64,000 nucleotides of DNA from positions 32,001 to 96,000 of the forward strand of contig JBBSXC010000001.1 of the NCBI GenBank assembly GCA_038045945.1. The letters run 5' to 3'. The DNA is from Nanobdellota archaeon. GTDB taxonomy: Archaea; Nanobdellota; Nanobdellia; Pacearchaeales; GW2011-AR1. This document shows, one piece after another, positions 50,568-53,371 of this stretch. The notes beneath the pieces were generated by a model. The model searched no databases, was not told where the DNA came from, and saw only the letters and a program-made list of their open reading frames with translations. A program made the translations under genes and the position numbers. Position 1 is the stretch's first letter, and each line of letters starts with the position of its first letter.

Positions 50568-51560
50568 TTATCTCTTAGTTTCAACACTATCAAAGAGAGC
50601 ACTCAAACTATCACCCTTAATTGTTCTGTAAATAGCTTCACCAAATAATGGAATCAGAGATATGGTTTCAAGATTGGGACTTCCACTGTTTACTAGGGTA
50701 TCAGAAACAAATAGTTTGTCTAGTGTAGAAAATCTTTCTAGTCCTGCGCTGAATAGTCCGTGAGTTCCATAAGCATAAACGCTTTTAGCCCCATTCTCTC
50801 TCAAAGATGCTTCAGTCATGGCTATAGTCCCACCAGTATCAATCATGTCATCAACAATTAGACAATTCCTGTCTTTAACATCACCTATTATTACAACTTT
50901 ATCAACAACATTATCTTTAAGTCTAATTTTGTCACCTATAGCAACATTCACTTCTAGACCGCTGGCCCTTAGCCTCTTAGCAAGACTTCTAACTCTTTTA
51001 GCCCCACCCATGTCCGGTGAAACAACAGCTAAATCCTCAAAAATTAATGGGTGTTTACTTCCCAGATAATCGATTAGTGTTGGAAAAGAATAAAGATTAT
51101 CAAAAGGAATATCAAAAAATCCTTGCATTGCAGGGTTATGAAGATCAACGGTCATTGCTCTGTCAGCATAAGTAGAGATCATCTTAGCAAGAGCTTTAGC
51201 ATTAACACTAACCCTACTTTCATCCTTTCTTTCTTGACGAGCGAAACGAGTATAAGGAAGAACAACATTTATTTCTTCAGGCGAAGAGAACTTTAGTGCA
51301 TCAAGGACAAAGTTAAGTTCTGTGTACCAGTCTGATGGGGACTTGTTAGAATCATGAATTAGATAACATTGCCTTCTGCGAACGTTCTTAGCAATACGAA
51401 GTTTGAATTCTCCATCCTTAAAGTCTTCTCTTTTGACAGTGACTAAGTCTACCTCAAAATCTCTTTTTGGCTTATATAGAAGGTGATTATAAACACCGAT
51501 AGCAAAATCGTAACCTTTACTGTTAGGATCGGCAATTATTGCAGCATCACCATTTTCCAT
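50568..51560 (-). CDS. prs: Ribose-phosphate pyrophosphokinase
   Basis: F.DGE, PY..ARQER, VDLH, SPD.GG, VDDMIDTGGT. Confidence 0.93.
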   Translation of the reverse strand: MENGDAAIIADPNSKGYDFAIGVYNHLLYKPKRDFEVDLVTVKREDFKDGEFKLRIAKNVRRRQCYLIHDSNKSPSDWYTELNFVLDALKFSSPEEINVVLPYTRFARQERKDESRVSVNAKALAKMISTYADRAMTVDLHNPAMQGFFDIPFDNLYSFPTLIDYLGSKHPLIFEDLAVVSPDMGGAKRVRSLAKRLRASGLEVNVAIGDKIRLKDNVVDKVVIIGDVKDRNCLIVDDMIDTGGTIAMTEASLRENGAKSVYAYGTHGLFSAGLERFSTLDKLFVSDTLVNSGSPNLETISLIPLFGEAIYRTIKGDSLSALFDSVETKR

Positions 51561-51705
51561 AAAATCTTTTGCCGTGTTAGCTATTTAAGGATTATTGGTA
51601 TAGAAAAATAAATGTATGATTATGAAAACACGGTGCATCTTATATAAATAACTGCTTTCTTTCTCCGTGAAAAGCGGAATGCTTTTTTTTTTGTTTGAAT
51701 ATGAA

Positions 51706-52338
51706 ATTCTTTGCTGTAATTAACTTCTAAATCAAGCTTGTACCATATTTTAGAATGGTTTGCTTTCTAGTTAATAATTCTGCAAAGAATCATTTTTGCT
51801 TTTAGGATAAGCGGCTATATCAAGTTTGTACCCTGTTTTAGAAGGGTTTACTTTCTAGCTTATCACTTAAAGCTTCAAGAATGTTAATTCTTGAGACCCA
51901 AAAATCTTATAGATTTTTGAGTTTTTTTTTATCAAGTCGAGTTGATTATTATTTTAAGAATTCTTTATGAGGACTTCTTTGTTAACTTTTAGATATAGAA
52001 AATCTTTCTTATCCTTACTGTATAAATTATTTGTCCTAGAATTCTTGTCTGAAATCTAACTTTTCTTTACTTCTTATCTAAGTACCAGTAGTACTTAAAC
52101 TTATCTATTGATCACCCTTTACCATCTTTTTGCCACCCTCAATCCTCTAATTACTCAGATTTGTATTGGTGAAAGTGAAAGGTGATGATCTTTTGATTAT
52201 AAAACCCTGGAAGAGGCTTTTATGCACTTAAATTAGGTTGCACTAAGCCTCTTCTGGGTAAAAAGAGGTGATATAATATGTAGGCAAAAGACCTATTTAA
52301 ACCTTTCGATATTGTTATCATTACACAATGACAATATC
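51706..52338. ncRNA. Candidate structured non-coding RNA/cis element (identity unknown)
   Basis: No ORF >=60 aa; at least 8 stem-loops; tandem 40-nt motif with compensatory changes. Confidence 0.5.
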
Positions 52339-52393
52339 TGCTCTTTATTTTTGACCCGTGGGTTTATAATATTTGTTTGTTTGTGTTTTATTG

Positions 52394-53371
52394 ATGGATG
52401 ATCAGCCCAAAATTGAGGTGAATAAAGTAGAGGTGAGTAGTACTGTTCTTGATAGTATGAATCAGGACGAGGTTTACGGTCTTCTTCTTGATAATGAGGT
52501 TGGTTGGCAGGCTATTCTTTATGATTTGATTAATACTGAGCGGCTTGATCCTTGGAATCTTGATCTTGTTGCTCTTACTCAGAAGTATTTGGAGAAGGTT
52601 AGGATTCTTGAGGAGGCTAACTTCTTTATTTCTTCTAATATTATTCTTGCTGCTTCTTTGCTTCTTAGGATTAAGTCTGAGATTCTTCTTGACCATTATA
52701 TTCCTTCTCTTGATGCTATTCTTTATGGTAAGAAGGATGAGGAGAAGAAGTCTTTGGAGAGGATTCATATTGATGAGTCGCAGCTTCCTTTGATTTATCC
52801 TAGGAGTCCTATGCCTAGGAACCGTCAGGTTACTCTTTCTGAGCTTGTTAGTGCTCTTTCTCATGCTATTAAGACTGAGAATAGGCGTATTCGTAAGGAG
52901 CTTATTATTAGGTCTGCTAGGCGTGAAACTGATATTGTTTTTCCTAAGATGAAGATTCGTATTCAGGATCGTATTAGGCAGATTTATGCTAAGATTCTTT
53001 CTAAATTCCAACAAAAGAAGGAGCGTATTCCTTATTCTGATATTGCTTCTGGTCGTGAGGATCGTATTGCTGGTTTTTTGCCTGTTCTTCATCTTGATAA
53101 CCAACAGAAGGTTTTTTTGCAGCAGGAGGCTCATTATGAGGAGATTTATGTTTGGGTTTACAAGCATTATAAGGAATTGAATCCTCATGTTGTTTCTGCC
53201 GAATTAGAAGAGGTTGATTCTTCTGAGATTGCTAATCACGAGCAACTTGAAAATTTTGATGCTCAGGAGCAGGAAATTATTGATGAACTAAACAAGTCTA
53301 GCAAGCTTTCTGATAAGACTGGTTTTGATAATCCTTTAGGTAATTTGCTTAGTGAATCGGGTGCAGAATAA
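52394..53371 (+). CDS. scpA: Segregation/condensation protein ScpA (kleisin)
   Basis: DPWNLDL..LT.KYL, LLRIKS, R.VTL.EL, FLPVLHL. Confidence 0.88.
   Translation: MDDQPKIEVNKVEVSSTVLDSMNQDEVYGLLLDNEVGWQAILYDLINTERLDPWNLDLVALTQKYLEKVRILEEANFFISSNIILAASLLLRIKSEILLDHYIPSLDAILYGKKDEEKKSLERIHIDESQLPLIYPRSPMPRNRQVTLSELVSALSHAIKTENRRIRKELIIRSARRETDIVFPKMKIRIQDRIRQIYAKILSKFQQKKERIPYSDIASGREDRIAGFLPVLHLDNQQKVFLQQEAHYEEIYVWVYKHYKELNPHVVSAELEEVDSSEIANHEQLENFDAQEQEIIDELNKSSKLSDKTGFDNPLGNLLSESGAE

Follow-up and report, generated by a model that had tools for sequence, protein, structure and literature searches.

The window analysed here is a stretch of 64,000 nucleotides of archaeal DNA, in which genes for RpoE/Rpb7, Spt4, S24e and S27ae lie to the left of the locus under study—an AT-rich, hairpin-rich spacer of 812 nt (51561-52372) between prs and scpA. 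It belongs to an 847-kb assembly (G000; 7 contigs, 93% complete, 34-37% G+C) in whose coordinates the locus falls at C1:83.7 kb; a second genome from the same genus is referred to below as G001. The spacer contains an array of hairpins and, closer to scpA, a predicted small RNA gene. In window coordinates, the features are:

50568-51560, minus strand: prs coding sequence (Pfam)
51582-51599, minus strand: predicted BRE/TATA of prs (score 9.4), 22-40 nt before its ATG
51703-51790: repeat period 1, in which an outer stem ATTCTTTGC/GCAAAGAAT encloses unit 1 (alignment, sequence and MFE folds)
51718-51776: hairpin unit 1, ~59 nt, with its core at 51731-51770 (covariance model score 90.5 bits)
51782-51799: degenerate B-like palindrome at the period junction, GCAAAGAAT-CATT-TTTGC (proposed from alignment to hairpin B)
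51787-51882: repeat period 2, with TTCAAGAAT at its 3' end serving as the 5' arm of hairpin B (alignment)
51806-51864: hairpin unit 2, ~59 nt, an in-register paralog of unit 1 with its core at 51819-51858 (covariance model score 92.1 bits)
51875-51894: hairpin B, a dispersed repeat specific to the genus, here as a perfect palindrome, TCAAGAAT-GTTA-ATTCTTGA
51896-51922, minus strand: hairpin A, an inverted repeat with A-run and T-run arms, the usual partner of B
51922-51930, plus strand: T9 run directly after hairpin A, a putative oligo-T terminator
52201-52311, minus strand: predicted small RNA and promoter (BRE/TATA at 52294-52311, score 12.1; RNA of ~73 nt from ~52273 down to 52201)
52373-53371, plus strand: scpA, diverging from prs

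Local alignment reveals that a whole period of approximately 88 nt is duplicated in tandem (51703-51790 vs. 51787-51882), with one hairpin unit inside each period. An earlier sequence-only reading had described two 40-nt copies with five differences, four of them forming two compensatory pairs and the fifth changing a loop base, and we confirm this description in full: the plus-strand cores at 51731-51770 and 51819-51858 differ at 51737 (C/T), 51745 (A/C), 51747 (A/G), 51756 (T/G) and 51762 (G/A), and the one difference outside the two compensatory pairs lies in the apical loop. A degenerate consensus of the core matches only twice in the 64-kb window, and two matches were obtained in 0/100 shuffles.

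From the outside inward, unit 1 consists of a closing stem, a 9/4-nt internal loop, a 4-bp stem, a 4/2-nt internal loop, a 5-bp stem and an 8-nt loop. Its closing stem pairs TTAACT (51720-25) with AGTTAA (51769-74) and is itself surrounded by the outer stem of ATTCTTTGC (51706-14) and GCAAAGAAT (51782-90), while that of unit 2 pairs GATAAGC (51806-12) with GCTTATC (51858-64). All of these stems had been named before and are present in the sequence; a new observation is that the inner closing stems are in register. When 63 nt around each core are aligned, core position -7 pairs with position +40 in both copies, so the homologous hairpin extends beyond the 40-nt core to approximately 59 nt.

Comparison of the two units over their 16 base pairs reveals four double changes that are still Watson-Crick (T-A to A-T, A-T to G-C, C-G to T-A and A-T to C-G), one gained pair (A.A to G-C) and no one-sided change. 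All 10 changed paired columns thus make up five complete pairs, an arrangement whose probability on position alone is 6.8e-5. When 17 differences were introduced by random mutation, at least four double compensatory changes arose in only 74 of 200,000 simulated trials, and no pair was broken in 79 trials of the same simulation. As a control, sliding the pairing partners by 1-3 columns left 0-1 double compensatory pairs, compared with four in the true register; a second control based on two-sequence shuffles (38/500) was uninformative, since the alignment has only two rows. The unpaired positions follow a different trend, with differences in 1/21 unpaired and 4/19 paired columns of the core vs. 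12/23 columns of the flanks (Fisher p = 7e-4 when the loops of the core are compared with the flanks), in agreement with the earlier observation that the loops are nearly invariant while pairing is maintained through paired substitutions. Collectively, these results establish the two units as a real pair of paralogous hairpins under structure-preserving evolution. The structural part of the sequence-only reading therefore holds, in that pairing has been kept, while its proposal of tandem aptamers is not supported, nor is the more specific idea of a PRPP-type riboswitch for prs, for reasons given below.

We also compared the folding of a 191-nt stretch with that of shuffled sequences on both strands, obtaining z = -2.95 on the plus strand (1/200 shuffles as good) and z = -5.28 on the minus strand (0/200 shuffles as good). 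The stems of the units are Watson-Crick throughout, with no G.U pair, so that they give no indication of which strand an RNA would come from and would suit a hairpin formed at the DNA level just as well.

The ends of the two periods tie the units to a second type of hairpin. The alignment sets GCAAAGAAT, at the 3' end of period 1, against TTCAAGAAT and matches the ends of the periods to the arms of hairpin B; ATTCTTTGC and CATT-TTTGC, with which the periods begin on the 5' side, resemble the 3' arm of B. The array consequently reads B-like palindrome, unit 1, B-like palindrome, unit 2, perfect B, hairpin A, T9. By inspection, hairpin A has a U.G wobble on the minus strand where the plus strand has a C.A mismatch, and the A copies located before the RNase P RNA gene and in a tRNA intron have the same wobble.

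Hairpin B, searched as TCAAGAAT-N4-ATTCTTGA, has 6 exact sites in G000, 3 in G001 and none in 139 other genomes, and the reversed sequence, used as a control, has 0 sites. It stands beside an A-type hairpin at 8 sites in all (two variants included), namely the present array and 7 others with similar mosaics, and the arms of the A-type hairpins vary in sequence while keeping the form C-R-A-run...T-run-Y-G. The other B/A sites in G000 are found at C1:139192, C7:35272 and C5:38144, where the stop codon of an upstream gene in the same direction precedes A-then-B, and at C4:2311, C4:119400, C4:240748 and C3:124052. One B/A copy borders the RNase P RNA gene immediately on its 5' side; another is located within the tRNA-Tyr(GUA) intron, where it is antisense relative to the usual order of A before B. 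Note additionally that the 3' end of an LSU rRNA gene lies at C4:825-1114, approximately 1.2 kb before the RNase P RNA gene, and that archaeal SSU rRNA has no match in G000.

Within G001, a spacer at L105 (G001:C26) contains, at approximately 1528-1629, three tandem B variants with arms AAT/ATT, AAG/CTT and AAC/GTT, whose innermost pair is T-A, G-C and C-G, respectively, along with an A-like hairpin. The flanks of this spacer have their counterparts at G000:C3:219-221 kb, a region without any B. On sequence comparison, this contrast indicates gain or loss of modules together with arm-symmetric evolution, which makes tandem hairpin arrays with compensatory differences and rapid turnover a property of the repeat system itself. 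We regard the motif between prs and scpA as an instance of that system, with an inner hairpin that is unusually long and well kept.

Searches against known RNA families offered no identity for the units. With Rfam 15, the whole window gave only 7 tRNA matches at gathering thresholds, and 51400-52500 gave at E<=10 only three sub-threshold chance matches to miRNA/snoRNA families (one at 19.5 bits, for example, where the gathering score is 96), which upholds the earlier statement that no family is recognised. SRP RNA and RNase P RNA were rejected as identities, with both genes found elsewhere in the genome on other contigs. BLAST against the own genome places the units at a single locus in two tandem copies, with no partial match longer than 13-16 nt and no mimicry of rRNA or other sequences seen.

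The same holds for relatives. A covariance model of both units (R1), searched at E<=1 with Infernal's stricter filters in 141 genomes from the genus, family, order and class, recovered only its own two copies and nothing in the 140 other genomes. A strict loop pattern had 0 matches in metagenome_contigs, while a relaxed 19-base pattern matched 37 loci in metagenome_contigs, 30 in genome_contigs and 4 in viral_contigs, which we attribute to chance because none has all five apical pairs together with the variable stem-2 pair; these collections may omit records of the own genome. Palindrome B with its flanks had 0 matches in viral_contigs. Using the 812-nt spacer as a BLAST query, we found some match (E<=0.01) in 55 of 61 genomes, nearly all of it in a conserved small RNA; no match covers a core, and a few matches of 22-33 nt (E 0.002-0.009 per genome) touch the stretch between the cores.

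The most direct comparison is the syntenic prs spacer of G001. Its ends are kept (query 21-151 at 77% and 636-746 at 79%), homology between G000 and G001 ends exactly at the start of the array, and the middle of the G001 spacer contains other hairpins, TCAAGATGC...GCATCTTGA and TCAAGATT-TAAC-AATCTTGA, with the motif absent. Within the searches run, the tandem motif is restricted to one genome. The sequence-only reading had named missing homologs, together with missing transcription, as evidence against itself, and the former is what we find as far as these searches reach. A literature search, judged from titles and abstracts, turned up no report of such intergenic palindromic repeats in DPANN and nothing specific on covariation in DPANN non-coding RNA.

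To place the array relative to transcription, we used an 18-nt BRE/TATA matrix trained on sequence upstream of 41 tRNA genes, whose own promoters have a median score of 10.8 and a minimum of 1.6; scores of at least 8 occur at 7.6e-4 of genome positions. The spacer contains three matches at or above this score, all on the minus strand and none on the plus strand: those of the small RNA gene and of prs, and a weak match (8.5) in the loop of unit 2, which is at about chance level given that the equivalent position in unit 1 scores 4.8. The matrix misses some true promoters (as the tRNA minimum shows, and scpA is unmatched), so the absence of plus-strand matches is weak evidence. From the position of the predicted prs promoter, the prs mRNA appears to be leaderless or near-leaderless, with the array outside the transcript, which makes a prs riboswitch unlikely. 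On the minus strand, the array lies between the small RNA gene and the prs promoter, its first element being hairpin A, which carries a U5 tract; on the plus strand, the chain of hairpins is bracketed by T10 (51683-51692) and T9 (51922-51930).

Between the prs promoter and the array, we also observed a segment (51612-51692) conserved with G001 at 77%, which contains a hairpin CACGG...CCGTG followed by the T10 run on the plus strand, and a TATA-like TTTATATA on the minus strand. This segment could be a small plus-strand RNA or a terminator.

The conserved small RNA that accounts for most of the BLAST matches in the 55 relatives is a more general lead from this locus than the array. Its predicted gene consists of the promoter, a variable spacer of approximately 20 nt, an invariant 5' tail UAUCACCUCUUUUU, a covarying hairpin and GGGUUU(U). 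Among 19 sequences, one pair of the hairpin is AU in 9, GC in 8 and GU in 2. A model built from these sequences finds the RNA, usually as a single copy, in 96 of the 151 high-quality genomes sampled across the phylum and in 84 of their 119 genera. The downstream genes vary from genome to genome (ScpA, an oxidoreductase, HPr and unknowns), which identifies a stand-alone gene and not a leader. No Rfam family matches it (51400-52500, E<=10), and its 13-nt invariant tail, UAUCACCUCUUUUU, resembles the anti-Shine-Dalgarno end of 16S rRNA. Class-wide conservation, the lack of an Rfam family and the anti-SD-like tail are what give it wider interest.

Beside the small RNA gene, at 52110-52190, there are several short repeats with GGTGA/TCACC, among them a plus-strand GATCACCC...ACC stretch that resembles the 5' end of the small RNA but is oriented the other way. 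A similar TATCACCTC is present on the plus strand of G001. From this resemblance, 52110-52190 may be a decayed, inverted second copy of the small RNA.

Our leading reading, held tentatively, is that the array is a lineage-specific, REP/BIME-like one, produced by a species-specific tandem duplication of approximately 88 nt within a genus-restricted mosaic of palindromic hairpins. Each period is a composite module made of an imperfect hairpin of ~59 nt and a flanking B-type palindrome, and the hairpin modules of this mosaic are scattered in spacers, gained and lost between orthologous spacers, and diversified by arm-symmetric changes. The result would be a very stable hairpin block that is passively transcribed, most probably on the minus strand, where it would form the trailer of the small RNA gene, which lies 270 nt upstream and has a strong predicted promoter. 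In that position, the hairpins and the U-tract of hairpin A might stop or pause read-through before it reaches the prs promoter and protect RNA 3' ends, and the invariant loops may be bound by a protein. On this reading the array is not a ligand-sensing leader of prs.

Several observations constrain this reading. The units exist in only two copies and are not dispersed, so that their membership of the repeat family depends on the B-type flanks and on adjacency. The B/A copy in the tRNA-Tyr intron is antisense to the proposed orientation, which counts against it. A Y1/RAYT transposase (PF01797) has 0 matches in this 93%-complete genome, while control searches matched in 6 of 14 reference genomes, and a REP-like mechanism of mobilisation is thus not supported. 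Finally, the near-invariance of 21 loop positions is beyond what a terminator or insulator needs and fits specific binding, which would favour an independent non-coding RNA.

Such an RNA, lineage-specific, structured and encoded on either strand, with hairpins that act as sequence-specific sites for a protein or another RNA, is the serious alternative, even though we consider it unlikely on balance. One example would be a plus-strand RNA of approximately 230 nt running from after the T10 run to the T9 run, so that oligo-T runs flank the hairpin chain on its own strand. In its favour, the stems covary while the loops are nearly invariant, and the folding energy is well under that of shuffles on both strands. 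Against this, the plus strand has no promoter match of at least 8 and none placed to start the RNA, neither G001 nor the 139 other relatives have a homolog, and the ends of the periods are B-type palindromes of a dispersed repeat.

Slightly less probable is that the array is selfish or neutral palindromic DNA, in which template switching within a hairpin restores pairing and recent gene conversion accounts for the similarity of the cores. The absence of G.U intermediates among the exclusively Watson-Crick pairs of the units is in line with such a mechanism, and hairpin modules in this genus do turn over between orthologous spacers. One published account (PMC8794818) reports that template switching creates and maintains hairpins with apparent compensatory changes. 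The units resemble the hairpins described there in having perfectly complementary arms and copy differences that come in pairs, while the conservation of unpaired bases seen here is not predicted by the mechanism in that description. Template switching leaves the roughly tenfold better conservation of the loops relative to the flanks unexplained, and gene conversion would need to be confined to a core of ~40-49 nt. The conserved loop bases suggest that at least some of these hairpin modules are more than selfish DNA.

It is also conceivable, though improbable, that the units are paralogs acting as sensors or binding sites within a regulatory RNA of recent, lineage-specific origin on the minus strand, whose invariant loops couple expression of the small RNA to prs. 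The RNA would be transcribed by read-through of the anti-SD-like small RNA gene, and its loops would bind a protein or a metabolite. If true, this would be a structured regulatory RNA born from palindromic repeat modules, next to a gene, prs, that supplies a nucleotide precursor.

The remaining identities fare considerably worse. A DNA-level array of protein-binding sites—a replication origin, a centromere-like site next to scpA or an operator for a transcription factor—would suit a long AT-rich spacer adjoining scpA with a repeated palindromic sequence, and is nonetheless very improbable: the single Cdc6/Orc1 gene is on another contig (Cdc6_C at C4:192899-193171), cumulative GC skew rises through the locus (C1:83.7 kb) with no turn, and the arm-symmetric changes appear unlike those that selection by a fixed dimeric DNA-binding protein would leave.

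Tandem riboswitch aptamers (for PRPP or a nucleotide, for example) in a long minus-strand 5' leader of prs have a smaller chance still. Tandem aptamers are a known architecture, exemplified by glycine riboswitches, and PRPP riboswitches of a ykkC subtype are known as well; here too, two adjacent and similar structured units lie upstream of a metabolic gene, 150-300 nt from the prs start and on the prs strand. However, each unit is a plain hairpin with no multi-helix junction, no relevant Rfam match appears even at E<=10, and the predicted promoter, 22-40 nt before the prs ATG, falls between motif and gene and would leave the motif outside the transcript, which tells against a PRPP-type riboswitch. 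Phylogenetic conservation is likewise lacking: G001, with the same prs spacer, has other hairpins in its place, and 140/140 other genomes and three public collections gave no homolog. The tandem-aptamer proposal is further weakened by the finding that the units are the inner parts of an 88-nt duplication around a dispersed, genus-specific palindrome.

We give equally little credence to a double-hairpin archaeal H/ACA guide RNA on the minus strand, for which two ~59-nt hairpins with a large internal loop each, and (by inspection) a minus-strand ACA after the closing stem of unit 1, approximately 16 nt from the upper stem, could be cited: inspection of both strands finds no tandem G.A (K-turn/K-loop) in the upper stem or loop, unit 2 has no ACA after it, one strand of the pocket is just 4 nt, guides for conserved rRNA sites would be expected in relatives, where none was found, and there is no Rfam match. 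Also by inspection, we rejected a CRISPR mini-array (the unit, 40-59 nt long, has just 2 copies, which differ at 5-17 positions, and the "spacer" is itself homologous between periods) and an integron attC-like site.

Returning to the REP/BIME-like reading, the tandem motif taken alone is a one-genome curiosity and, on present data, not developable into an RNA family. Its wider value is as a clean, statistically solid case of structure-preserving evolution of paralogous hairpins within the repeat mosaics of very small archaeal genomes, which have been poorly described so far, and, if the array is transcribed and bound, as a demonstration that repeat modules can be recruited into functional RNA.

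Bacterial REP and BIME elements have been proposed to act as transcription terminators, protectors of mRNA 3' ends and protein binding sites, and their loops are typically much less conserved than those of the units described here. The present array differs from them in its archaeal host, in the direct and not alternating orientation of its units, and in the lack of a detected RAYT/Y1 transposase. It differs in copy number as well: where REP/BIME elements have many dispersed extragenic copies, the units form one tandem pair only, and it is the flanking B palindrome that is dispersed, at a low copy number of 6 sites. The likeness lies in the architecture and its evolution, with short, imperfect palindromes located in spacers and clustered there—as we observed in this array and its relatives—into mosaics of several hairpin types, with copies that carry compensatory changes, and with fast gain and loss between close relatives.
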